In this document: piece by piece, positions 749 through 13,451 of the stretch | Numbering within the stretch: the stretch's first letter is position 1 | Layout: each line of letters starts with the position of its first letter | From: Byssovorax sp. | GTDB taxonomy: Bacteria; Myxococcota_A; Polyangia; Polyangiales; Polyangiaceae | DNA: 13,451 bases | Direction of reading: 5' to 3' | Assembly: GCA_046351295.1 (NCBI GenBank) | Contig: JAXLYT010000035.1 | Coordinates: 1-13,451, forward strand | Position numbers and translations under genes: made by a program | The notes under the pieces: model-generated | The model's input: the letters and a program-made list of their open reading frames with translations, nothing else | Databases searched by the model: none | What the model was told of the DNA's origin: nothing

Positions 749-1111
749 TCACGGCGAAGGCAGCAGCACCTTCCGGATCTTCGCGGCCAGCTTCTCGGCG
801 TGCTGCGCGTCGTCGATGAAGAGCACCTCTTCGTACCAGACATTGAGCGTGTCGACATCCGACAGCGATCGCAGCTTCTCCCGAAGGCCCGCATCGACCG
901 TGCCCAACCAGCGGCTGAGGAGCCGGATGATCGTCTCGGCGAAGACCTTGGCCTCGCCCTTGGTCTCGCCCTTCGCGAAAATTTCCTGGTACAGCGTGCT
1001 TGCCATGAGCTCTGTCTCGCTAATGTAGGCCTTCATGGCCCGGACGGGAACATCTTCTGCTTCGGCGACGCGCCGTAACACGGCCAGGTGGTCGGCTTTC
1101 CACCTGACCAT
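749..1111 (-). CDS. DUF4351 domain protein, a stand-alone or truncated C-terminal module of the Rpn/YhgA-like PD-(D/E)XK putative transposase family
   Basis: This is an ORF-track ORF. The C-terminal ~85 aa read ELMASTLYQEIFAKGETKGEAKVFAETIIRLLSRWLGTVDAGLREKLRSLSDVDTLNVWYEEVLFIDDAQ. They fit the G-x3-G-x3-G ... RLL.R.FG ... L..LS...L..W...L pattern of DUF4351. No upstream nuclease domain is present, and the reading frame is closed beyond 1111. The gene is visibly less GC-rich than its neighbours, with AAA, TTA, GAA, GAT and GTT codons. An alternative start is the ATG at the complement of 1034-1036 (95 aa). Neither start has a convincing SD. Confidence 0.6.
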   Translation of the reverse strand: MVRWKADHLAVLRRVAEAEDVPVRAMKAYISETELMASTLYQEIFAKGETKGEAKVFAETIIRLLSRWLGTVDAGLREKLRSLSDVDTLNVWYEEVLFIDDAQHAEKLAAKIRKVLLPSP

Positions 1112-2111: not shown

Positions 2112-2196
2112 CTGCCGCGGCTGCACTGACTCGCTGTCCAGCTTGACAGGCACACCGTTCCGTAGTTGGCCCCGAGCGACGGATGGATCTCGGCCC

Positions 2197-3804
2197 ATGG
2201 CGGCAAAAAAATCCAAGAAACCCAAGCAAAAGGCCCCGAAGCGTGCCGCGAAGCCGGCGCGCCCCACGACCCGCGCGGCCAAGAAGAAGGCCGTGGCGCG
2301 CGCCAAGCCGGCGGTGAAGAAGGCCGCCCCCAAGAAAGCCCCGAAGCCGAAGCGTCCGGCCGCGAAGAAGGCCGTGAAGAAGGCGGTCGTCAAGAAGGCC
2401 GCCGCGAAGAAGAAGGCCGTCGTCAAGAAGGCCGCGCCGAAAAAGGCGGCGGTGAAGAAGGGCCCGGTCAAGAAGGCCCTCGCCCGGAAGCCCGCGCCCA
2501 AGGCGCCGGTGAAGAAGGCGGCCCCGAAGAAGGCTGAAAAGCCCGCCAAGAAGGCCCTCAAGAAGGCCGAAAAGCCGGTCAAGAAGGCCCCGAAGGCCGA
2601 AAAGCCGGTCAAGAAGGCCGAGAAGCTCGTCGAGAAGGCTTCGAAGAAGGCTGAAAAGCCGGCGAAGAAGGCCGAGAAGGTCGTCGAGAAGGCCCCGAAG
2701 AAGGTCGAGGTGCCGGCCAAGAAGGGGGCGCTCGCCAAGGCGCCGCCTTCGAAGCCGGTCGCGCCGCCTTCGAAGAAAGGGCTGCCGGAGGCCCGGCCGT
2801 CGGCGGGCAAGCGGCCCGTCCCGGCGCCGCCCGTCTCGGCCCCGAAGAAGAGCAGCCCCGGCAAGGAAGCGCCGCCCGCCAGGCGGAGCGACCGGCCCAT
2901 GGAGGCCGCGGGGAAGAAGCGCAGCTCGGCGCCGCCTCCGCCCGCCAAGGGCGGCAAGAAGGGGGCGCCCCTCGCTCCCGTGCGCGAGCCCCCGCCTCGC
3001 CTCGTCACCCTGCCCCTGCCCACGCTCCAGGCGCCCAAACGCCCCAGCGTGGAAGAGCGCTCGGCGTCGATCGAGAAGCGCCTCGCCGGCCAGACGGACG
3101 ACTTCCGCAAGCGCTACCTCGACAGCCTCGATATGTCGTGGATTTACCACGACAGCGCGCTCGAAGGGACCGTCTACACCTTCGAAGAGCTGCGCGCCGG
3201 CTTCTCCGGCCAGCCCCAGCCCATCACCGACTCGAACCTCCAGCCGACCTTCGAGGACATCCGGCGGCACAAGGAGGCCATCGAGTACGTCCGCGATTTC
3301 GGCGAGAAAAAGCGGCTCCCCGTCACGGTCGACGTGATCAAGAAGATCTACCTCATCCTCCACCCGGAGGAGGGCGACATCAAGACCGTGAAGTACCGGA
3401 AGGACATCCCCCAGCATCGCCTCTACTTCCACGAGTACGCCCCGCCGGACAAGATCGCCTACAAAGTCCGGCAAATCGTGGACTGGCTGAACGACCCGGA
3501 GACGCGCAAGACGCGCAACGGCATCCGCATCGCCGCCCGCGCGCACTACGATCTGCTCCGCGTCTACCCCTTCCCCACCGACAGCGGGAAGACGGCGCGC
3601 CTGTTCATGAACTTGCTGCTGCTGCGGAGCGGATTGCCGCCGGCGATCCTCCACTCCACGGAGCGGCAGCGCTACTACGAGGCCCTGAAGGGCTCGGCCA
3701 CCACGGTGCTCCAGATGGTGCAAGAGGCGGTGGAGAACGCCCTCTCCAGCGTCGAAAAGCTCCTCGATGAGCACGAAACGAAGAAGCGCGCCTTCGTCTC
3801 CTGA
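2197..3804 (+). CDS. Fusion protein: N-terminal histone H1-like Lys/Ala/Pro-repeat (AKKA/KKAEKPVKKA) domain joined to a C-terminal Fic/Doc-family domain with a degenerate active-site motif
   Basis: A single 535-codon frame opens at ATG 2197; the track extends it upstream to TTG 2143. Residues 1 to ~290 are K/A/P-rich repeats of the histone H1 / Hc1 / AlgP type, encoded by AAG-rich near-tandem 33-36-nt nucleotide repeats around 2530-2700. The C-terminal ~230 aa carry Fic-fold signatures. SWIYHDSALEGTVYT resembles Fic 'iyhSnaIEGN'. HYDLLRVYPFPTDSGKTARLFMNLLLLRSGLPPAIL aligns to HPFx(D/E)GNGRxxRLlmnllLlraGyPp, but with His->Tyr, D->T, G->D, N->S and R->K. This is followed by ERQRYYEAL. The stop is TGA at 3802-3804. 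Confidence 0.75.
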   Translation: MAAKKSKKPKQKAPKRAAKPARPTTRAAKKKAVARAKPAVKKAAPKKAPKPKRPAAKKAVKKAVVKKAAAKKKAVVKKAAPKKAAVKKGPVKKALARKPAPKAPVKKAAPKKAEKPAKKALKKAEKPVKKAPKAEKPVKKAEKLVEKASKKAEKPAKKAEKVVEKAPKKVEVPAKKGALAKAPPSKPVAPPSKKGLPEARPSAGKRPVPAPPVSAPKKSSPGKEAPPARRSDRPMEAAGKKRSSAPPPPAKGGKKGAPLAPVREPPPRLVTLPLPTLQAPKRPSVEERSASIEKRLAGQTDDFRKRYLDSLDMSWIYHDSALEGTVYTFEELRAGFSGQPQPITDSNLQPTFEDIRRHKEAIEYVRDFGEKKRLPVTVDVIKKIYLILHPEEGDIKTVKYRKDIPQHRLYFHEYAPPDKIAYKVRQIVDWLNDPETRKTRNGIRIAARAHYDLLRVYPFPTDSGKTARLFMNLLLLRSGLPPAILHSTERQRYYEALKGSATTVLQMVQEAVENALSSVEKLLDEHETKKRAFVS

Positions 3805-4893: not shown

Positions 4894-7775
4894 AACGGTC
4901 GTCTCTGCGTCGTGTGGCTGCGAAGGAGCCGGATTTCATCGAGGTGATTGGCTCGAAGGAGCACAACCTCGCGATCGAGCACCTCGAGATACCCAAGAGG
5001 CAGCTCGTGGTGTTCACGGGGGTCAGCGGGTCGGGCAAGTCGAGCCTCGCGTTCGATACGCTCTATGCCGAGGGGCAGCGGCGGTATGTCGAGACGCTGA
5101 GCGCGTATGCCCGGCAGTTCCTCGGGCAGCTCGAACGGCCGCATGTCGACCACCTGCGGGGGCTTTCGCCGACGATCGCCATCGAGCAGAAGAGCGCGTC
5201 GGGCAACCCCCGGTCGACGGTGGGCACCATCACGGAGATCTACGATTATCTCCGCGTGCTCTATGCCCGCGTGGGCGAGCAGTATTGCCACCTCTGCGGG
5301 GAGAAGGTCACGGCCCAGAGCTCGGACCAGATCGTCAAGGAGATCCAGGCCCTTCCCCAGGGCACGAAGCTCACGATGGTGGCGCCCCTCGTCAGCCATC
5401 GGAAGGGCGAGTTTCGCGATCTGTTCGAGGAATTGCGCGGTCGAGGCTTTGCGCGGGTCGTCGTCAACGATGTGACCTACAAGCTCGATGAGGTGCCGAA
5501 GCTCGACAAGAAGAAGAAGCACACCATCTGGCTCGTGGCCGATCGGATCACCGTCTCTCCGGAGGATCGCGGGCGCATCGCCGAGAGCGTCGAGGTCGCG
5601 CTCAAGGAGGGCAAGGGCGAGATGCGCGCGCTCTTCAGCGACGGCAAGCGCGAGCCCTTGGTGTTCAGCGAGCTGCGCACCCACTGCGGGCACAGCTTCC
5701 CGGCCCTCTCGCCGCAGAGCTTCTCGTTCAACAGCCCGCTCGGCATGTGCAGCGAGTGCAACGGCCTCGGCACAAGGCTCGAGGTCGATCCCGAGCTCAT
5801 CGTCCCCGATCCTTCGCTGTCCATCCGTGACGGCGCCATCGCCCCGTGGGCGTCGGGCATGGCCCGCGGCGAGGGGTGGACGTTCCGCATCGCCGACGCC
5901 GTGGCCAAGGCATGCGCCGTCAAGCTCGACACGCCCTGGAACAAGCTCCCCAAGTCGAAGCAGGACCGGGTGCTCTACGGCCTCGAAGGCGAGCGGATCA
6001 GCGTCCAGTGGGGCAAGGAAGGGTCGGAGAGCCATGGCACCTTCGGGATGCGCTTCGAGGGCGTGATCCCGAACCTGATGCGCCGCTATCGCGACACCAC
6101 CTCCGAGCAGGCCCGCGAGCACTACCGCGTCTTCATGAGCGAGCGCCGCTGCGACACCTGCGGCGGCAAGCGCCTGCGCCCCGAGACGCTGGCCGTGAAG
6201 CTCGCGAAGAAGAGCATCGCCGATGTCACCGCCTTCACCGTGCGCGAGGCGGCGGCACACATGGCCTCGCTCGGCCTCGAAGGCGCCCAGCAGACGATCG
6301 CCGCCGGCGCGCTGCGGGAGATCGAGGCGCGCCTCTCGTTCTTGCTCAACGTCGGCCTCGATTACCTCACCCTCGAACGCAGCGTGCCCAGCTTGAGCGG
6401 CGGTGAGGCCCAGCGCATCCGCCTCGCGAGCCAGCTCGGGAGCGAGCTCTCGGGCGTGATGTACGTGCTCGACGAGCCGAGCATCGGCCTGCACCAGCGG
6501 GACAACCAGCGCTTGATCGAGACCTTGCGCCGCCTGCGCGATCTCGGCAACAGCGTCGTGGTCGTCGAGCACGACGAGGAGACCATCCGCGCGGCCGATC
6601 ACCTCGTCGATTTCGGCCCGGGCGCCGGCCACCTCGGCGGCAAGGTCATGTACAGCGGCCCCCCCGAGGGCATCGAGAAGGATCCGACGAGCCTGACGGG
6701 GGCCTACCTCTCGGGGAAGAAGAAGATCGATCTGCCCAGCTCGCGCCGCACCGCCAAGGGAGCGCTCAGCATCCTCGGCGCCCGGGAGCACAACCTCAAG
6801 AACATCGATGTTCGCTTCCCGCTCGGCGTGCTCACCGCCGTCACCGGCGTGAGCGGCGCCGGCAAGAGCTCGCTCGTCAATGGCATCCTCCTGCCGGCCC
6901 TCGGCAAGGCGCTTTATCAAGCCAAGGACCCGGTGGGCGCCCACCGCCGCATCGATGGGCTCGACTCCATCGACAAGGCCATCGCCATCGATCAGAAGCC
7001 CATCGGCCGCACCCCGCGATCGAACCCCGGCACGTACACCAAGGCCTTCGACCTCATCCGCGACATCTTCGCCGAGCTGCCCGAGTCCCGCGCGCGGGGC
7101 TTCAATGGCGGGCGATTCTCCTTCAACGTCAAGGGAGGACGCTGCGAGTCGTGCCACGGCGACGGCGTGGTCAAGGTGGAGATGCACTTCCTCGCCGACG
7201 TGTACGTGCCCTGCGAGGTGTGCGAGGGAAAGCGCTACAACGCCCAGACCTTGAGCGTGCGCTTCAAGGGCAAGAACATCGCCGAGGTGCTCGACTCGAG
7301 CGTCGATGATTGCCTGGCGATGTTCTCCTCGTTCCCTGCCCTCCGGCGCGTCCTTCAAACCCTCTCCGACGTGGGCCTCGGCTACATGAAGATCGGCCAG
7401 AGCGCGCCCACGATGAGCGGCGGCGAGGCCCAGCGGGTGAAGCTCTCGCGCGAGCTCGGCAAGACGCAGACGGGCAAGACGTTCTACGTGCTCGACGAGC
7501 CGACGACGGGCCTGCACTTCGAGGACATCCACAAGCTCCTCCTCGTGCTGCAAAGGCTCGTGGACGCCGGCAACTCCGTGGTGGTGATCGAGCACAACCT
7601 CGATGTCATCAAGTGCGCCGACTGGATCATCGACCTCGGCCCCGAGGGCGGCGGAGGCGGCGGGCGGATCATCGCCGAGGGGACGCCCGAGCAGGTGGCG
7701 AAGGTCGAGGGCTCGTACACCGGGCAATTCCTCGCGCCGCTGCTCGGAAGGAAGCGGGGGCGCGCGGCGAGCTGA
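4890..7775 (+). CDS. uvrA: Excinuclease ABC subunit A
   Basis: 961 aa with two ABC ATPase modules. The Walker A motifs are GVSGSGKSSLAF and GVSGAGKSSLV. The ABC signatures are LSGGEAQRIRLA and MSGGEAQRVKLS. The Walker B motifs are YVLDEPS and YVLDEPT. The Cys pairs of the UvrA zinc modules are CHLCGEK, CSECNGLG, CDTCGGKR, CESCHGDG and CEVCEGKRY. The SD is GAGG 4-5 nt before the ATG. The frame is uninterrupted. Confidence 0.97.
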   Translation: MKRSSLRRVAAKEPDFIEVIGSKEHNLAIEHLEIPKRQLVVFTGVSGSGKSSLAFDTLYAEGQRRYVETLSAYARQFLGQLERPHVDHLRGLSPTIAIEQKSASGNPRSTVGTITEIYDYLRVLYARVGEQYCHLCGEKVTAQSSDQIVKEIQALPQGTKLTMVAPLVSHRKGEFRDLFEELRGRGFARVVVNDVTYKLDEVPKLDKKKKHTIWLVADRITVSPEDRGRIAESVEVALKEGKGEMRALFSDGKREPLVFSELRTHCGHSFPALSPQSFSFNSPLGMCSECNGLGTRLEVDPELIVPDPSLSIRDGAIAPWASGMARGEGWTFRIADAVAKACAVKLDTPWNKLPKSKQDRVLYGLEGERISVQWGKEGSESHGTFGMRFEGVIPNLMRRYRDTTSEQAREHYRVFMSERRCDTCGGKRLRPETLAVKLAKKSIADVTAFTVREAAAHMASLGLEGAQQTIAAGALREIEARLSFLLNVGLDYLTLERSVPSLSGGEAQRIRLASQLGSELSGVMYVLDEPSIGLHQRDNQRLIETLRRLRDLGNSVVVVEHDEETIRAADHLVDFGPGAGHLGGKVMYSGPPEGIEKDPTSLTGAYLSGKKKIDLPSSRRTAKGALSILGAREHNLKNIDVRFPLGVLTAVTGVSGAGKSSLVNGILLPALGKALYQAKDPVGAHRRIDGLDSIDKAIAIDQKPIGRTPRSNPGTYTKAFDLIRDIFAELPESRARGFNGGRFSFNVKGGRCESCHGDGVVKVEMHFLADVYVPCEVCEGKRYNAQTLSVRFKGKNIAEVLDSSVDDCLAMFSSFPALRRVLQTLSDVGLGYMKIGQSAPTMSGGEAQRVKLSRELGKTQTGKTFYVLDEPTTGLHFEDIHKLLLVLQRLVDAGNSVVVIEHNLDVIKCADWIIDLGPEGGGGGGRIIAEGTPEQVAKVEGSYTGQFLAPLLGRKRGRAAS

Positions 7776-7791
7776 GGGCGGCGCGCGGGCG

Positions 7792-7825
7792 GGGCCCGGC
7801 CTTGCGGTCGACCTCGGGCCGGGCG
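7792..7825 (+). terminator. GC-rich hairpin (GCCCGGCC ... GGCCGGGC, 16-nt loop containing GGTCGACC) downstream of uvrA, with a weak T-tract (CGTTTTG) 8 nt later
   Basis: The inverted repeat is 7794-7801 against 7817-7824. The U-tract is neither immediately adjacent nor long, so this is at best a weak intrinsic terminator or an RNA-stabilising stem-loop. Confidence 0.3.
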
Positions 7826-7860
7826 TAGGATCGTTTTGCGCTCCAGCCAGGAGGGCGACG

Positions 7861-8712
7861 ATGCGAACAAGACGGTGGGTGCTCCTCTCCACGGCGGCGA
7901 TCGCGCTGGGGCTCTCGGCCGGACCCCGGGCGACGGCCCAGATCCGGGACAGCGAGGTGCTCGGGCCATCCCTGTCTCCAGGGAAGGTGAAGCTCACGTG
8001 CCGGGGGATGGGGGCCACCAACATGATGGATTGCGCGTTCCAGCTCGACCCGGGCAGGAAGCAAGCCACTGCCCCCCGTCACGATCCGTGTCGATCCAGG
8101 CACGCTCGCCTATGCCTCCGATCACGCCGCCGCAGAACATGGTCGTCGGCGGCGTGGAGGGCCGGCTCACGGATGGGTTCGGCGTCCTCGCGCCGCCTCT
8201 GGGAGACGGCCCGCCCGCGCTCCTCGCGTCCCCGTTGCCCGGGCGCCGCCGCTTCAGGCCGGATGATCAGCGTCGTCCCGAGCCCGGTGATCACGGTGTC
8301 GAGCACGACGCCTGTCCACTACGTGCTCGGGGTGTACTGCGCCGAGTTCGAGAAGGACAACCCCTCTTCGGACGTGACCTTCACCTTCGGCAAGGTCGAT
8401 CCGGTGCTGGCATGCATCACCGAGACGGCCGCGCGCTTCGAGGGCCGGACCATCCAGGCCGCGGTGTGGATCAAGACGGACTTCCGGGACGTGGAGCCGG
8501 CGCTCGCCCACAAGACCATCGACAAGAAATACCCGCTGTCCAACCGGGAGGGGCGGACGCGCTCGGCGTCGCGGGTGAGCTGCGGCGTCCTCGGGAAAGA
8601 GGCCGTGAACGCCCTCCCCGAGGCGGATGCCGCGGCCTCTCCGGCGTCTCGGATGCCGCCTCCCCTGCCGCCCGGGGGCTGCTGCGGAGGCCCCTCCGCG
8701 GCGGCGCGATGA
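7861..8712 (+). CDS. Secreted hypothetical protein (signal peptide MRTRRWVLLSTAAIALGLSAGPRATA|Q); frame integrity questionable in the middle third
   Basis: SD GGAGGG lies 5 nt before ATG 7861, which opens a typical Sec signal peptide. The frame with codon starts = 1 mod 3 looks coding at 7861 to ~8060 and from ~8290 to 8712. The downstream stretch reads PVHYVLGVYCAEFEKDNPSSDVTFTFGKVDPVLACITETAARFEGRTIQAAVWIKTDFRDVEPALAHKTIDKKYPLS. Between ~8062 and ~8135 that frame turns Arg/Ser-rich (RHDPCRSRHARLCLRSRRRR) and its third positions fall mainly on A/T. Between ~8140 and 8270 the position-specific GC pattern, with the second codon position lowest, fits the 0 mod 3 frame better (MPPITPPQNMVVGGVEGRLTDGFGVLAPPLGDGPP...). 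I recognised no family. Confidence 0.4.
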   Translation: MRTRRWVLLSTAAIALGLSAGPRATAQIRDSEVLGPSLSPGKVKLTCRGMGATNMMDCAFQLDPGRKQATAPRHDPCRSRHARLCLRSRRRRTWSSAAWRAGSRMGSASSRRLWETARPRSSRPRCPGAAASGRMISVVPSPVITVSSTTPVHYVLGVYCAEFEKDNPSSDVTFTFGKVDPVLACITETAARFEGRTIQAAVWIKTDFRDVEPALAHKTIDKKYPLSNREGRTRSASRVSCGVLGKEAVNALPEADAAASPASRMPPPLPPGGCCGGPSAAAR

Positions 8713-8715
8713 TGG

Positions 8716-10968
8716 ATGTCTCGCCGAGGCGACAGCCCTGAAGACCTCCTCTCGCGCGGGCGCGCGGCGCTCCGGCAGGGCCGCGCCGAGGAGGCGCGCG
8801 CGGCGTTCGAGGCGGTCCTCCGCCTGCGCCCGACCCTCGCGGAGGGCCACCTCGGGCTCGGCCGGGCGCTTGTCCGGCTGGTCGTGATCGAGGCGGCGCG
8901 CTCATCTTCTTCCAGCGCGCCGCGCGCCTCGGCGCGGAGAGCGCGCGCCTGTCGTTCGAGGCCTTGCCGGAGGCCCCGCCCCGCCGGGATTTCACGATCG
9001 GGCAGTCGATCCGGGGCGAGGCCACGGGCATTCGCTACACGGTGCGCGACATCAGGCGCGGGACGTTCGGCGCCGTCTACCTGGTCGACGACGACCGGAG
9101 CGCGCCCCATGCCCTCAAGACCTTCCAGGCTCGCCATTCGTGGAGCGACGACGATCGCCGCCGCTTCGAGCGGAGGCGCTCACCTGGGTCAACCTGGATC
9201 ACCACCCTCATATCGTCTGGGCCAGGTGGATGGAGGTCATCGAAGGGTTCTTGTGCCTCGTGCTCGAGCAGGTGCCCGGCGGCGATCTCGGAGGGCTCCT
9301 GGCCGCCCGAGGCCCTTTGCCCGCGGGCCGGGCGCTCTCGCTCGCCCTCGATCTCTGCGACGCGATGGCCCATGCCCATGATCGATCCGGCGTCGTCCAC
9401 CGGGACATCAAGCCGTCGAACTGCCTGCTGACCGTCGAGGGGCGCCTGAAGATCGGCGATTTCGGCCTCGCCCGCGCCTTCGGCGAGAGGGGCCATGGCC
9501 CCGGCGCCGCCCCGACCGGCGAGCCCTGCTCGACCACGCCGGCCGGATCGCTCCCGTACATGGCCCCGGAGCAGCACGACCGCGCGGCCATCCTCGACAC
9601 GCGCGCGGACATCCACGCGCTCGGCGTGATGCTCTACGAGATGCTCACGGGCGATCGCCCCCTCTCGGGCAGCAGGGCAGAGGCCCATGTCCTCGCCGGC
9701 GCCGCGCGGCGCTCGATCCCTCCCGCGCTCGCAGACGCCTTGCTCCACCTCGTCGCTCGATCCCCGGCCGATCGCCCGCCCGATTTCGATCGAGCGAGGG
9801 AGATGCTCACCCCCATCGCCGCCGCGCTCGGGGCCCGCCCGGCGCCGCGGGCGAAGGCGATCGTCATGGGCCCCGACGATCTGAAGAACAAGGCCATCGC
9901 GCTCGTCGCCCTCCGCCGCGACGAGGAGGCGCTCGCCTGCTTCGAGGAGGCGCTCGCGCGCTCGCCGGACGACGCCGCCCTCTGGAAGGGCGCCGGCGTG
10001 GCCCACCACGCCCTCGGCCGCTACACGGAGGCGCTCCGCTGCCACCGCAGGGGCCTCGCGATCGCCCCCGGTGACCCGGGGCTGTGGAACAACATGAGCC
10101 TCACGGAGCGCGCGCTCGGCAATGTGGACGCCGCCCTGGCATGCTGCGCAGAGGGGCTTTCGCGCGCGCCCCGCGATCCGAAGCTGCTCGGCAACCAGGG
10201 TGAGCTGCTGCACTCGAGAGACGATCTCGCCGGGGCGCTCTCTTGCTACGACGCCGCCTTGGCCGTCGTGCCGGGCGACACCGACCTGGAGGGGAAGAGG
10301 GGGTATGTGCTGCTCGACCTCGGCCGCCACGAGGAGGCCGGAGCATGCTTTGAAGCGGCGCTCGCCGTCACGCCGCGCAGCGCCGCGCTGTGGCGAGGCC
10401 TCGGCGCCGCGTGGCACCGGCGCGGCGCCTGCGAGCAGGCCGTCCGCTGCTACCGCTACGCCGCCGAGATCGATCCTCGTAGGGCCGATGTCCACCGGAT
10501 GCTCGGCCAGGCCCTGCTCTCGATCGGACGGCCCGAAGAGGCCCTCGCCGCGCTCGAGCAGGCCATCGATGTCTCTGCCTCCGATCGCGAAGCCCACGTG
10601 GCGATGGCCGCGGCGCTGAGCGTCCTCGGCCGCCTCGAAGAGGCCTGCGCGCGCTCATGCGCGCCACGCCGATCTCGGCCCGCCGGACGAGGACCTGTGC
10701 CTCGGGGCCGTGCTCCACCGGCTCGGGCGGCTGGAAGAGGCGCTGCGCTGGTCGGCGCGAGGGGCGGCCCTCGCGCCGGCCAACCCCTGGTTGCAGGAGA
10801 ACCTCGGTCATATCCCTGACCGCGCTCGGCCGGCTCGACGAGGCGCTGGCCGAGATCGAGCGAGGGGCCGAGATCGACCCGGACAACGCGGGGATACGGG
10901 AGCTGCGAGCCCGGCTGCTCGAACGCCTGGGCAAGGCCGATGAAGCGATGGATCGACGGCAGCGCTGA
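8716..10968 (+). pseudogene. Ser/Thr protein kinase (Hanks type) with one N-terminal and ~10 C-terminal TPR repeats, interrupted by at least four single-nucleotide frameshifts; either an authentic pseudogene or indel errors in the sequence
   Basis: Coding segments occupy different frames. (a) 8716 to ~8895, frame 1 mod 3: MSRRGDSPEDLLSRGRAALRQGRAEEARAAFEAVLRLRPTLAEGHLGLGRAL (TPR). (b) ~8895 to 9172, frame 0: ALIFFQRAARLGAES...DFTIGQSIRGEATGIRYTVRDIRRGTFGAVYLVDDDRSAPHALKTF...DDDRRRFER (Gly-loop and VAIK Lys). (c) 9173 to ~10650, frame 2: EALTWVNLDHHPHIV...HRDIKPSNCLL...DFGLAR...YMAPEQ, then about 10 TPRs. (d) ~10660 to 10810, frame 0: DEDLCLGAVLHRLGRLEEALRWSARGAALAPANPWLQENLG. (e) ~10815 to 10968, frame 1: SLTALGRLDEALAEIERGAEIDPDNAGIRELRARLLERLGKADEAMDRRQR. 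At 9171-9176 the sequence reads CGGAGG; restoring one G (CGGGAGG) gives FEREALTWVNLDH, so one G appears to be missing there. The start codon is 4 nt after the stop of the upstream gene (TGAtggATG). Confidence 0.7.
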
Positions 10969-10978
10969 CACCGCGCGC

Positions 10979-11266
10979 TCAACGGGCGGGCGGCCGGAGG
11001 CTCACGTCTCCCACGTCACCCAGGAACGCAGCCCAGGGATAAGGGTGCTCTCCGCACCCGAGGATCCTCGGCTCGCGTTCCTCCGCCGCATGCCTGCGAC
11101 ACCACGCGACGAGCCTCTTGCTCGACCCATCGAAGGTGAAGAGGACGACCGGCCGATCCAGCGTCGTCTGCCAGCCTTCCCACACCCCCACATGATCCCG
11201 CTCGTGCTGGAGCTGAATGAGGACGAATTGATCCCCGATCCGATCGCCGGTCGAAGGGCTCTTCAT
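10979..11266 (-). CDS. Hypothetical 95-aa protein (MKSPSTGDRIGDQFVLIQLQHERDHVGVWEGWQTTLDRPVVLFTFDGSSKRLVAWCRRHAAEEREPRILGCGEHPYPWAAFLGDVGDVSLRPPAR)
   Basis: A strong RBS, AGGAGG, lies 6 nt upstream of the ATG (complement of 11264-11266). The start overlaps the stop of the upstream TonB-like gene as ATGA, which indicates translational coupling. The track's 130-aa version, starting at 11371, has an Arg-rich N-terminus that overlaps the upstream gene and is implausible. A competing frame (track 11002..11193) has similar GC3 over the last ~25 codons, so the C-terminus is uncertain. I recognised no family. The gene converges on the kinase gene with a 10-bp gap. Confidence 0.5.
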   Translation of the reverse strand: MKSPSTGDRIGDQFVLIQLQHERDHVGVWEGWQTTLDRPVVLFTFDGSSKRLVAWCRRHAAEEREPRILGCGEHPYPWAAFLGDVGDVSLRPPAR

Positions 11267-12102
11267 GGCTGACCTCCTGCGTAGAGGTTGATGGAGAACG
11301 GGAGATTGACGATCACGCTCTGGCCGCCGAACGGCGCCACGCGCGCCGCCGCGAACGCGCTCGCGAGGCACCTGCGCCCGGGCCCGAAGAACGGCCCCTG
11401 GAGCCCCACGGAGACGGCCTTGCCGCTGGACGGCCGGAACGTGACCCTCGCGCTGCCATGCCCGGCGGCGCCGTCGAGCACCTTGCAGCGCCGCGCGGCC
11501 CCCAGGGCGCGCGCCATGGCCTGACCGGCGCGCTCGGTCGTCAGCTCGGCCTCGACCCGGGCCGCCGGGGGGCGAAGCGCCGGCGCCGGGCTCACGGGCG
11601 CGTCCTTCGCGCTCACGGGCGCGTCCTTCGCGCTCGCGGGCGCGTCCTCGGGCGCGCTCGTCTCGGCGCTCGGCTTCCTCTCCAACACGGCCGGAGCGCC
11701 GATGTCCACGGGCTCGGGCGCGGCGCGCGCCGCCTCTTCTGAAGCCTCGCGCGGCCTTTCCAGCTCATGACGGCTGGTCGCGCGAGCGGCCATGGAGACC
11801 GGCGAGGCGACGAGCCAGACGATGAGCGAGAGCACCTGCGCGGTGGCGACGAAGGCGCCGAGGAGCAGGGCGATCTCTGCCCGGCGGATCGGCCTCGGCG
11901 CGGGCGCCTCGCCGCCCTTCAGCTGGGCCAGGAGCCAGTGCTCTTCGAGCCCTCCCTTGAGGTTCTCGATCTCGATCAGCGTGTTGCGCCCCCGGACGCC
12001 CGCGAAACCTCCGGGCGGCGCGGTGGGACCGCGGCCGGCATGCGAGCCTCTGCGCGAGCCATCCAGGTGATGCTCCTCCGCCTGTGTCGGGTGCATGGAC
12101 AT
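11263..12102 (-). CDS. Membrane-anchored protein with a TonB_C-like / myxobacterial AgmX-PglI-type C-terminal domain; the layout is an N-terminal cytoplasmic segment, one TM helix, a Pro/Ala-rich linker and a Cys-containing C-terminal domain
   Basis: 279 codons from the ATG at the complement of 12100-12102. The RBS GGAGAGGAGGAG lies directly upstream, and a second ATG 6 nt downstream is an alternative start. The predicted TM helix is IALLLGAFVATAQVLSLIVWLVA. The linker carries (S)AKDAPV 7-aa tandem repeats. The C-terminal domain reads AELTTERAGQAMARALGAARRCKVLDGAAGHGSARVTFRPSSGKAVSVGLQGPFFGPGRRCLASAFAAARVAPFGGQSVIVNLPFSI. It contains the two-Cys pattern of the myxobacterial AgmX/PglI-type C-terminal domain, and the stretch G..ARVTFRP.SGKAVSV...CL..AFAAARVAPF resembles the periplasmic C-terminal domain of TonB. 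The part of the track ORF 11263..12630 upstream of 12102 is antisense to the bEBP gene and Arg-rich, so I reject it. Confidence 0.55.
   Translation of the reverse strand: MSMHPTQAEEHHLDGSRRGSHAGRGPTAPPGGFAGVRGRNTLIEIENLKGGLEEHWLLAQLKGGEAPAPRPIRRAEIALLLGAFVATAQVLSLIVWLVASPVSMAARATSRHELERPREASEEAARAAPEPVDIGAPAVLERKPSAETSAPEDAPASAKDAPVSAKDAPVSPAPALRPPAARVEAELTTERAGQAMARALGAARRCKVLDGAAGHGSARVTFRPSSGKAVSVGLQGPFFGPGRRCLASAFAAARVAPFGGQSVIVNLPFSINLYAGGQP
11591..11653. repeat. 21-bp tandem repeat x3 (CTCACGGGCGCGTCCTTCGCG) inside the linker of the TonB-like gene, encoding AKDAPVS heptad repeats
   Basis: Two perfect copies lie at 11591-11611 and 11612-11632, followed by a degenerate third copy. The repeats keep the reading frame, since 21 is divisible by 3. 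Confidence 0.6.
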
Positions 12103-12220
12103 ACTCCTCCTCTCCGGCCGGAACGAGGTCCGCGCGCGCCGGCATACCCGCTCACCTCGCCGGTGAGCGCTGCCTCGGCGCCGGTCGGTGTCTCGGCTGC
12201 TCCAGCCTGTCGAGGGCATG

Positions 12221-12236
12221 AGCAGCCGGCGTGCCA
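12221..12236 (-). promoter_or_regulatory. Sigma-54 (RpoN) -24/-12 promoter driving the TonB-like / small-protein operon
   Basis: The minus-strand sequence (reverse complement of 12221-12236) is TGGCAC-GCCGG-CTGCT. It matches TGGCAC at -24 exactly and has CTGC at -12 against the consensus TTGC, with canonical GG-N10-GC spacing. It lies ~120 nt upstream of the ATG at 12102 and is oriented toward it. An FHA-domain sigma-54 activator gene is transcribed divergently ~180 bp away. Confidence 0.5.
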
Positions 12237-12309
12237 CGCGCCATGGCGCCGGCCAATGGCTGAAAACAAGCCTGTCCAGCGCGCGGGCGCACCCCCGGAC
12301 GGGCCCTCC

Positions 12310-12389
12310 TGCGCATCTGCGCAATTGCGCGAGCGCGCGATCCGCGGCGATCGCGGCCCCTTGCGCGCCCTTGCGCGCCGCGCGATCCT
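12310..12389. promoter_or_regulatory. Cluster of GC-rich palindromes and short tandem repeats, a candidate enhancer (UAS) / operator region between the sigma-54 promoter and the bEBP gene
   Basis: Three tandem TGCGCRnn octamers lie at 12310-12333. They include the perfect 12-bp palindrome GCGCAATTGCGC at 12319-12330. An imperfect palindrome CGCGATC-CGCGGC-GATCGCG lies at 12336-12355. The tandem 10-mer CCTTGCGCGC occurs twice at 12358-12377, and GCGCGATCC is repeated at 12335 and 12380. The cluster lies 75-170 bp upstream of the -24/-12 element, which is the usual distance for bEBP binding sites. Confidence 0.35.
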
Positions 12390-12417
12390 TCCGCCTTGCA
12401 GGTAAGGAGACAACGTG

Positions 12418-13451
12418 ATGGTCAGCTCGACCCAGCTCGACGATACGAAGCGCGTCTCGATGGAGCAGGCCCTGGCCGAGGCGGCGAACCTCGCGCTGCT
12501 CATCCATCACCCGCGCGGCGCCCAGGCGATCCCGCTCTGGCCGGGCCGGACGGTGGTGGTGGGGCGCGAGCCCGACGGCTCGGAGGACGATTTCGTCGAG
12601 ATCCCCGACGACTCCGTCTCGAAGCGGCATGCCAGGTTCTTCGCCGGCGAGGGCCGGGTGCTCGTCAGGGATCTCGGCTCCACGAACGGGACCCGCGTCG
12701 GGACAACGCTGCTCCAGGGCGGAGACCCCGTGCGCATCGAGGTCGGAACAACCATGTTCCTCGGCAAGGTGTTCGCGGCCCTCGTGGTGGCGAGCTGCGA
12801 CGCCGCGAGCCTGGACGACGATGCCGCCGCGGCATCATCCCTCTCGCCCGTGGCGGCGAGCGGCCCGATGAAGGCCCTCATCGAGGACATCAGGCCCATC
12901 GAGCCCGTCTCGTCGCCGGTGCTCCTCCTCGGCGAGACCGGGACGGGCAAGGAGGTGCTCGCCCACTTCATCCACCGCACGAGCCGACGGCGGAACGCGC
13001 GCTTCGTCGCGGTCAACTGCGGCGCCATCCCGGCGGCGCTCGCCGAGAGCGAGCTCTTCGGCCACGTGAAGGGCGCGTTCACCGGCGCGATCGATCGCAG
13101 AGGGGTCTTCGAGGTCGCCTCGGGCGGCACGCTCTTCCTCGACGAGATCGGAGACCTCCCGCTCGACCTCCAGGTCAAGCTGCTCCGCGTCCTGCAAGAG
13201 GGCGTCGTCCGGCGCGTCGGCAGCAACGAGGACAGGCCGGTCGACGTCCGTCTCGTCTCGGCCACCCACCGCGACCTCTCGAAGATGGTCGCCAAGGGCG
13301 GGTTTCGGGAAGACCTTTATTACCGGATCAACATCATCGATTTCCACATTCCCCCGCTCCGCGACAGGAGAGACGATATCCCCCCGCTCGCCCGGCGCCT
13401 GCTCCGGACCCTGAGCCAGAAGGCCGGCCGGACGATCGGCGCGATCGACGC
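12418..13451 (+). CDS. Sigma-54-dependent transcriptional activator (bacterial enhancer-binding protein) with an N-terminal FHA domain; 3' end lies beyond the window
   Basis: SD AAGGAG at 12404-12409 lies 8 nt before ATG 12418, and GTG 12415 is an alternative start. The FHA domain is [12 protein letters not shown]...[28 protein letters not shown]. The sigma-54 AAA+ domain has Walker [15 protein letters not shown]. The GAFTGA motif sits in [15 protein letters not shown]. The Walker B motif is [27 protein letters not shown]. The frame is uninterrupted to the window end, and the gene is missing from the ORF track because it has no stop within the window. Confidence 0.9.

Follow-up and report, generated by a model that had tools for sequence, protein, structure and literature searches.

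The right-hand part of a 13,451-nt stretch of DNA from Byssovorax sp. (contig JAXLYT010000035.1; hereafter the window) carries what we propose to be a sigma-54 regulatory module specific to its lineage, in a metagenome-assembled genome (MAG) of the Polyangiaceae (Byssovorax sp.). A candidate -24/-12 promoter lies in the 315-bp gap between the gene of a bacterial enhancer-binding protein (bEBP) with a forkhead-associated (FHA) domain and a minus-strand operon of two genes, and is oriented toward the operon. The first of these, gene A, encodes a membrane protein of 279 aa and the second, gene B, a protein of 95 aa. Both output open reading frames (ORFs) and the activator are identical to annotated proteins of the NCBI MAG 'Byssovorax sp.' (Polyangiaceae, Myxococcota), where U0359_22025 (95 aa), U0359_22030 (277 aa) and a 454-aa 'sigma 54-interacting transcriptional regulator' lie on the same 114,297-bp contig.

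In the circuit that we propose, RNA polymerase-sigma54 would bind the -24/-12 element (12221-12236, minus strand) in a complex that stays closed until it is remodelled by an AAA+ activator, most likely the divergently encoded protein of FHA, AAA+ and putative helix-turn-helix (HTH) domains. The FHA domain would couple its activity to a phosphothreonine-bearing partner made by a Ser/Thr kinase elsewhere in the genome, and the activator would probably bind a cluster of (T)TGCGC repeats about 100-170 bp upstream. The transcript would encode two translationally coupled proteins. Gene A is predicted to give an N-in bitopic inner-membrane protein, in which a disordered Ala/Pro/Glu-rich linker of ~83 residues would carry a disulfide-type (two-Cys) C-terminal domain (CTD) into the periplasm. 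There the CTD would most likely dock on a periplasmic or outer-membrane partner, probably via a beta-sheet edge, as TonB does in its established structures. Gene B would provide a small orphan protein. For the whole chain, from the sigma-54 promoter through an adjacent FHA-bEBP gated by a phosphothreonine partner to an envelope tether and its small companion, we put the chances at about even. The firing of the promoter, the phosphothreonine input, the binding site and the periplasmic docking are what we infer from the sequence, and that this activator serves this promoter is plausible but unproven, the argument being one of proximity.

A candidate sigma-54 promoter facing a two-gene operon

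The core of the promoter reads TGGCACGCCGGCTGCT, with the conserved GG at 12234-12235 and GC at 12223-12224. This is the single match to TGGCAC-N5-YTGC in the window, where 0.04 would be expected; 9 of 200 dinucleotide shuffles contain one. Measured against TGGCACG-N4-TTGCW it has one mismatch, and the conserved GG and GC and their fixed spacing are preserved. Transcription would start near 12210, giving a leader of ~108 nt. The gene for sigma-54 itself, rpoN, lies outside the window. An RpoN promoter of the form TGGCAC-N5-CTGC directed at the operon was the starting point of the original prediction, and it survives this scrutiny as both the only match to the pattern and the best-scoring site with the core of a position weight matrix (PWM).

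Calibration with a PWM gave a divided answer, depending on which columns were used. The matrix was built from 152 aligned 19-nt sigma-54 sites (S2 Table of PMC12316311); these are from Desulfovibrionales, with spacers and flanks rich in T, and only three M. xanthus sites are present in the table. With a core of the 12 columns carrying at least 0.45 bit of information, and a third-order Markov null, the promoter scores 16.7 bits. It ranks first, 6 bits clear of every other position in the window, and outscores 61% of the 152 reference sites as well as the M. xanthus mbhA promoter (15.95). The null probability of 8e-7 per position corresponds to 0.02 expected per window, and for the 315-nt gap in the productive orientation the chance is about 2.5e-4.

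The full matrix weighs against the promoter, as does the -12 element, which reads CTGC instead of TTGC. With all 19 columns of the Desulfovibrionales-trained matrix, and the base composition of the window as background, the score is only 10.2 bits, second in the window and among the lowest-scoring tenth of the reference sites. At a null of ~4e-5 per position, about one chance match of equal score is predicted per window. On these figures the match could be an accident of GC-rich DNA, one such being expected every 13 kb, with the operon transcribed from a sigma-70 or extracytoplasmic function (ECF)-type promoter missed by a simple scan. Yet the difference between 10.2 and 16.7 bits shows that the outcome hinges on the treatment of the spacer. 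The spacer and flank columns of the full matrix reward any T and penalise the GCCGG spacer in a genome of 72% G+C. Of the three M. xanthus promoters in the S2 Table (PMC12316311), mbhA (GCGTA) and 4521 (GCGTC) have spacers that are comparably G+C-rich, so the penalty reflects the training set. Moreover, the core matrix and the consensus pattern expect only 0.02-0.04 matches per window, and this one falls in the single 315-nt gap beside the only bEBP gene, in the productive orientation. Scans for sigma-70 promoters and for terminators in the window found nothing, though the sigma-70 scan is uninformative for this phylum. Finally, in 383 kb of other high-G+C DNA surrounding bEBP genes there are 12 copies of the strict pattern, eight of them no more than a few hundred bases downstream from the bEBP match (at ~9080-9215, where the bEBP match starts at 8001), which indicates that the pattern marks real contexts rather than noise. 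We therefore consider a chance match quite unlikely. With a neutral treatment of the spacer the promoter is credible on statistical grounds, and it is probably real.

The next-best sigma-54-like matches to the matrices in the window are at 1044-1062 (plus) and 989-1007 (minus). ACGGGAACATCTTCTGCTT scores 12.7 bits with the full matrix and 8.3 with the core, and CATGGCAAGCACGCTGTAC scores 10.6 bits with the core. Both lie inside or edge the ORF 749..1111 (minus) and are probably chance. An inverted repeat of 14 nt at 12194-12228 (CGGCTGCTCCAGCC / GGCATGAGCAGCCG), 86% complementary, overlaps the -12 element as well as the beginning of the predicted transcript, and may act as an operator or form a 5' hairpin. 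The structure of the 5' leader as a whole is not significant (z = -1.3). File S3 of PMC12316311, described as the seed sigma-54 promoter position-specific scoring matrix, contains MEME motifs of enhancer-binding proteins (YDWPGNVRELEN, VLITGESGTGKE) and no DNA matrix.

The operon itself has the organization originally proposed, with two translationally coupled genes. Gene A starts at ATG 12102 (12096 as annotated), preceded by GGAGAGGAGGAG, and has a G+C content at third codon positions (GC3) of 0.90 and, among its six frames, the highest codon log-odds. The stop codon (TGA) overlaps the ATG of gene B as ATGA, and a perfect AGGAGG at 11273-11278 lies 6 nt before that ATG. The arrangement AGGAGG-N6-ATG is found twice in the window where 0.07 would be expected, the other copy marking the start of a candidate secreted protein. 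The ribosome-binding site of gene B is embedded in an eight-residue tail of gene A (NLYAGGQP) that extends past the end of the conserved domain. At the level of the sequence, then, the coupling of the two genes is clear.

Whether gene B is a gene at all requires more care. Its coding statistics are weak, GC3 being 0.78 compared with 0.90-0.92 in the neighbouring genes, and its AlphaFold2 model, made from the single sequence, has low confidence (mean predicted local distance difference test, pLDDT, 44.6) and is uninformative. It has no homologue in 15 billion proteins and no match in Pfam or the PDB, and NCBIfam gave nothing usable. Such an ORF might be the remnant of a gene in decay, or untranslated 3' sequence, leaving the operon monocistronic, and decay is evident in the region from the kinase pseudogene that it adjoins (see below). 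On the other side stand the ATGA overlap, the perfect AGGAGG at optimal spacing and its location within the extension of gene A. Of the six frames, in addition, that of gene B alone gives a positive codon log-odds (+0.17 bit per codon), and the ORF is annotated in the source MAG. We hold the remnant to be possible but doubtful, and gene B to be likely, though not certainly, a real gene. No membrane helix or signal peptide is apparent by eye, and the product is probably soluble. A sequence pattern and the beta-beta-beta-alpha-beta order of the model suggested a degenerate kinase N-lobe. BLASTP found no similarity of gene B either to a kinase carrying the same CTD as gene A or to the neighbouring pseudogene, and with no Pfam or PDB match and a model of low confidence the idea was rejected.

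The FHA activator, its candidate binding region and its proposed input

The activator is an intact FHA-AAA+ protein and the sole sigma-54 activator in the window, divergent to the operon, with its ATG (12418) 181 bp from the -24 element; a lone divergent activator some 180 bp away had been predicted. The identification of its sensory domain as FHA also holds: PF00498 matches at E = 1.1e-11 with the canonical GR/SxxH/NG residues present as GR49-50, S68-K-R-H71 and N90-G91. The AAA+ domain matches Sigma54_activat (PF00158) at E = 1.6e-67. The DNA-binding domain is less clear. HTH_8 (PF02954) has no match at E<=10 in the full 454-aa activator, which counts against a role at this promoter. Five FHA-bEBP homologues nevertheless have an HTH_8 with which the last ~40 residues line up in register, both by eye and with MAFFT, as in the example of AAAHELGIKIRRMEQLIKEYEI vs AARLLGIPLRTLAHKIKMLGI. 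Given a domain undetected by Pfam and a tail in register with those of homologues, DNA binding by the activator is plausible only.

Where might it bind? The original prediction placed GC palindromes (12310-12389) at enhancer distance. The distance is right, the cluster lying about -100 to -180 relative to the predicted start of transcription, which is normal for an enhancer, but the palindromes themselves do not stand out. They are no longer than chance, 82% of dinucleotide shuffles holding one equally long, and the excess of perfect 6+6 palindromes (5 vs 1.6 expected) has p=0.07. What is enriched is the sequence TGCGC/GCGCA (8 vs 2.9, p=0.003), as well as TTGCGC (4 vs 0.8, p=0.004). The cluster is a candidate activator-binding or autoregulatory region; since it lies 30-110 bp upstream of the ATG of the activator itself, autoregulation is an equally good reading.

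This position is one of several points that might assign the activator to other targets, or to itself, with a genuine sigma-54 promoter here being served by a different activator. Polyangiaceae genomes are expected to encode dozens of bEBPs, and the repeats lie nearer the activator start than a typical dedicated enhancer would. The undetected HTH_8 points the same way, as does the company that related proteins keep. The best matches of the activator after itself are 56% identical, in the AAA+ part only, while its FHA-containing relatives are 45-51% identical and occur in unrelated neighbourhoods with no divergent envelope operon. In a scan of genome contigs with the activator as query, the AAA+ domain dominated the outcome, 80 bEBP loci of a generic kind. 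None is an orthologue, and since none of these other loci has a gene with a GltG/GltJ-type CTD in its vicinity, the pairing does not recur as a module. On the other hand, one 315-bp gap is common to the promoter and the activator, with the TGCGC cluster at -100 to -170, a typical enhancer distance, and divergent pairs of activator and target are the commonest sigma-54 arrangement (e.g. pspF-pspA, norR-norVW and zraSR-zraP). We regard service by another activator as unlikely, and retain the adjacent FHA-bEBP as the preferred regulator of the operon.

How general is the arrangement? Searches of 5.8-15 billion proteins and 185,579 species genomes found no orthologue of the activator, gene A or gene B; in the protein databases that take in JGI data, all three are singletons. 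The same searches gave no orthologous locus in which the promoter, the repeats or the gene pair could be compared, a further point against the module. The output pair was expected to be undescribed. This is true, but trivially so, as both genes are singletons of one MAG.

A further part of the original prediction that has not stood is the source of the phosphothreonine, for which the neighbouring Hanks-type kinase had been suggested. To read this gene through, four changes of frame are needed, near 8870, 9170, 10640 and 10790. The Pkinase match (E = 1e-30) covers profile positions 48-204 only, in one frame, with the N-lobe and the TPR ends in other frames, so that no ORF holds a complete catalytic domain. 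Switches in GC3 phase, Pfam matches in three frames and the three-frame translation agree on the frame changes. The gene is a probable pseudogene, and this is likelier than random assembly error because the 2.9-kb uvrA gene beside it is intact. Being frameshifted it is a poor candidate for the input kinase, and the ligand of the FHA domain, if there is one, must come from elsewhere. A more radical possibility is that the orphan pair forms a new small envelope-spanning feedback device, either the 74-residue cytoplasmic tail of gene A or the gene B product serving as the phosphothreonine ligand of the FHA domain. If this were true, occupancy of the periplasmic CTD by a partner in the outer membrane or periplasm would be relayed directly to sigma-54 transcription, and no dedicated neighbouring kinase would be needed; we consider it highly improbable.

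The membrane protein and its C-terminal domain

Gene A was originally described as a TonB_C/AgmX-like membrane protein. Remote homology and fold bear this out, but a direct family match does not exist. Scans of Pfam and NCBIfam gave no significant match for the protein, neither TonB_C nor tonB_Cterm being found, and NF033768 matched neither the whole protein (E<=1) nor its C-terminal 112 residues (E<=0.1). Of the gliding-motility models only GltJ matches, with E = 0.18 and inside the low-complexity linker. A word-indexed search finds only gene A itself. In contrast, HMMER against 1.84 billion cluster representatives returned 84 proteins at E<=1e-3, the best at 6e-9. All of them match through residues ~174-271 of gene A, always at the C-terminus of the target. 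The targets are diverse: proteins of ~500-600 aa with an N-terminal MJ0042-type zinc ribbon and GYF (weakly GltJ-like), a Ser/Thr kinase, and many proteins of 80-260 aa.

An alignment of 30 relatives shows that gene A retains four invariant positions, comprising two Cys, one Gly and one Phe. Nineteen of the 30 match NF033768, the 'AgmX/PglI C-terminal domain', at E<=0.1 (best 2.4e-6), and the scores printed for two full-length relatives are 18-20 bits against a cut-off of 40; two of the 30 match GltG and one tonB_Cterm. From the alignment of the CTD, AlphaFold2 predicts a helix-strand-strand-helix-strand topology with a pLDDT of 87.8. In a Foldseek search with this model the 26 best rows are the CTDs of HasB, TonB, FusB and TolA, or complexes holding one, apart from two chains of a DUF5043 protein at ranks 2 and 5, with E-values that are weak (6e-3 upward). 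By its predicted structure, then, the C-terminal domain of gene A has the fold of the TonB/TolA CTD. A profile search with the CTD alignment against PDB sequences gave nothing meaningful, and the assignment is one of remote homology and predicted fold. Taken together, the data support a bitopic membrane protein with a TonB/TolA-CTD-like, GltG/GltJ-type C-terminal domain.

The rest of the protein fits this layout. Its one membrane helix, AEIALLLGAFVATAQVLSLIVWLVASPV, is strongly hydrophobic, and the 74-residue N-terminal tail has no Pfam domain. Within the linker an in-frame tandem repeat of 21 nt (11590-11648, minus; 2.8 copies, 97% match) encodes SAKDAPV, and is a possible length-variable periplasmic spacer.

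The two-Cys CTD has the consensus FDR.AA..AL..AA..A..CK...GPTG.G...VTF.PSG.V......PF.GT.VG.C....F..A.VPPF.G..V.V.K.F.I and ends proteins of many architectures. These include zinc-ribbon and GYF proteins that are GltJ-like, a Ser/Thr kinase (P0037), a putative lipoprotein (P0013) and stand-alone forms of 80-180 aa. Pfam has no model for it, and NF033768 catches most examples only below its cut-off. Two small relatives (P0009 and P0013) lie on contigs too short to give an informative context; one adjoins an ECF sigma gene. The HMMER search found more than 80 distinct 50%-identity clusters of CTD proteins. The GltG/GltJ-type TonB-CTD-like domain is thus also present in very small stand-alone membrane proteins, beyond components of the gliding motor. 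The main value of the analysis is this two-Cys TonB-CTD-like module, which lies outside Pfam and is found widely in Myxococcota as a cassette at the C-terminal end of proteins with diverse architectures.

Neighbouring features and comparison with known systems

The window has a G+C content of ~70-72% and contains no Rfam family. From left to right it carries the genes for a Fic-domain protein with a Lys/Ala-rich N-terminus and an endonuclease III-like protein, and the intact uvrA. These are followed by the candidate secreted protein, the TPR/kinase gene, the 95-aa and 279-aa genes (minus), the 315-bp gap and the activator (plus), which runs past the right-hand end. Coordinates are given in Table 1.

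Table 1. Positions of the module, its parts and the neighbouring genes in the window
Feature	Position	Strand	Details
Sigma-54 (-24/-12) promoter	12220..12238	minus	CGTGGCACGCCGGCTGCTC; probable; unique pattern match and PWM
Gene A	11263..12102	minus	279 aa; MAG annotates 277 aa from ATG at 12096 (U0359_22030)
Gene A, cytoplasmic tail	11881-12102	minus	residues 1-74; predicted
Gene A, membrane helix (one)	11797-11880	minus	residues 75-102; predicted
Gene A, Ala/Pro/Glu-rich linker	11548-11796	minus	residues 103-185
Gene A, TonB/TolA-CTD-like, GltG/GltJ-type domain	11266-11547	minus	residues 186-279; Cys206 and Cys245; remote homology and predicted fold
Gene B	10979..11266	minus	95 aa (U0359_22025); orphan
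(T)TGCGC(R) motif cluster	12309..12389	.	CTGCGCAA x2.8, CCCTTGCGCG x2.2; candidate binding region
Sigma-54 activator (bEBP)	12418..13451	plus	cut by window end; 454 aa in source MAG (P0086)
Activator, FHA domain	12553-12753	plus	GR (12562), SKRH (12619), NG (12685)
Activator, AAA+ domain	12856-13341	plus	Walker A (12931), GAFTGA (13072), Walker B (13132)
Activator, AAA lid and divergent, putative Fis-like HTH tail			tail of ~70 residues; both beyond window
TPR / Hanks-type Ser/Thr kinase / TPR gene	8716..10968	plus	converges on operon; probable pseudogene
Candidate secreted protein	7861-8741	plus	ATG 7861 behind AGGAGG-N6-ATG; signal peptide MRTRRWVLLSTAAIALGLSAGPRATAQ
Fic-domain protein	2143-3804	plus	553 aa; C-terminal Fic/DOC, Pfam E 9e-10

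Some of these neighbours have features of their own. Upstream of the Fic gene an apparently non-coding tandem repeat of 43 nt (1645-1881; ~5.5 copies, 79-92% match, consensus CGCCTCGAAACGCCTCCCGCACGCCCCTGCAAGAGCCCACCGC) is followed by a further, degenerate array of 21 nt at 1888-1968. The first ~250 residues of the Fic protein are Lys/Ala/Pro-rich, with histone-H1-like repeats that arise from DNA repeats of 30-33 and 84 nt; it is unusual for a Fic enzyme to be fused to a tail of nucleoid-binding type. The candidate secreted protein has no Pfam match; its frame seems to pass from one to the other of two overlapping ORFs, 7603..8712 and 7836..8741, and this gene may also be frameshifted.

If the proposed wiring is right, the operon would add one more case of sigma-54 control of an envelope protein gated by Ser/Thr phosphorylation, in the poorly studied Polyangiaceae. 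The general significance is limited by the regulatory logic being known from myxobacteria and by the locus being a singleton of one MAG. The novelty is confined to this combination at a singleton locus, the activator class, the divergent arrangement and the CTD having all been described already.

Among known proteins, gene A has the layout of GltG and GltJ in miniature. These components of the M. xanthus Agl-Glt gliding machinery (GltJ = AgmX, GltG = PglI) consist of a cytoplasmic N-terminal part, a single transmembrane helix and a disordered stretch in the periplasm, followed by a TonB-CTD-like domain with which they dock on GltD (PMC11761067). The gene A protein is 279 aa long, compared with models of ~670 aa, and it lacks the cytoplasmic zinc-ribbon and GYF domains of GltJ (NF033761) and the FHA domain of GltG (NF033760). 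There are no glt or agl genes near it, its neighbours being the kinase pseudogene, uvrA and the bEBP gene. It is an orthologue of neither gliding protein.

Compared with TonB and TolA (TonB_C, TIGR01352; PDB 1XX3, 2GRX, 5LW8, 9DDZ and 1TOL), gene A has no match at the level of sequence. Its membrane helix contains no His and hence no SHLS-type motif, and unlike the TonB and TolA partnerships there are no exbBD or tolQR motor genes within the 13.4-kb window. With no TonB_C match, no His in the helix and no motor genes in the window, gene A is not a TonB. The linker is Ala/Pro/Glu-rich and not of Pro-Glu/Pro-Lys type, and the CTD carries a Cys pair; to our knowledge the CTD of E. coli TonB has no such pair.

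The closest parallels for the activator are the FHA-domain sigma-54 enhancer-binding proteins of Myxococcus xanthus, which were reportedly treated by Jelsbak, Givskov & Kaiser in 2005 (PNAS 102:3010). Passages of PMC12288465 and PMC11980068 present FHA-type sigma-54 activators and kinase-controlled cascades of enhancer-binding proteins as established in M. xanthus, and in PMC11980068 (citing Jelsbak et al. 2005) the relevant passage treats the FHA type as an established class and expects myxobacterial enhancer-binding proteins to be under protein-kinase control. The Byssovorax activator shares with these proteins the order FHA, AAA+ (with GAFTGA) and, putatively, C-terminal HTH, a Myxococcota host, and presumed control by phosphothreonine made by a Ser/Thr kinase in place of a receiver domain. 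It differs in that there is no orthology, in a putative HTH too divergent for Pfam, and in targets that are different and species-specific.

In its organization the locus resembles pspF-pspABCDE, norR-norVW and zraSR-zraP. In each the activator is transcribed away from the -24/-12 promoter across a short shared intergenic region, which also holds the activator binding sites, as the TGCGC cluster may do here, and the output is related to the envelope. The module proposed here differs from Psp, Nor and Zra at its two ends: the input domain is FHA, and the output proteins are unrelated.

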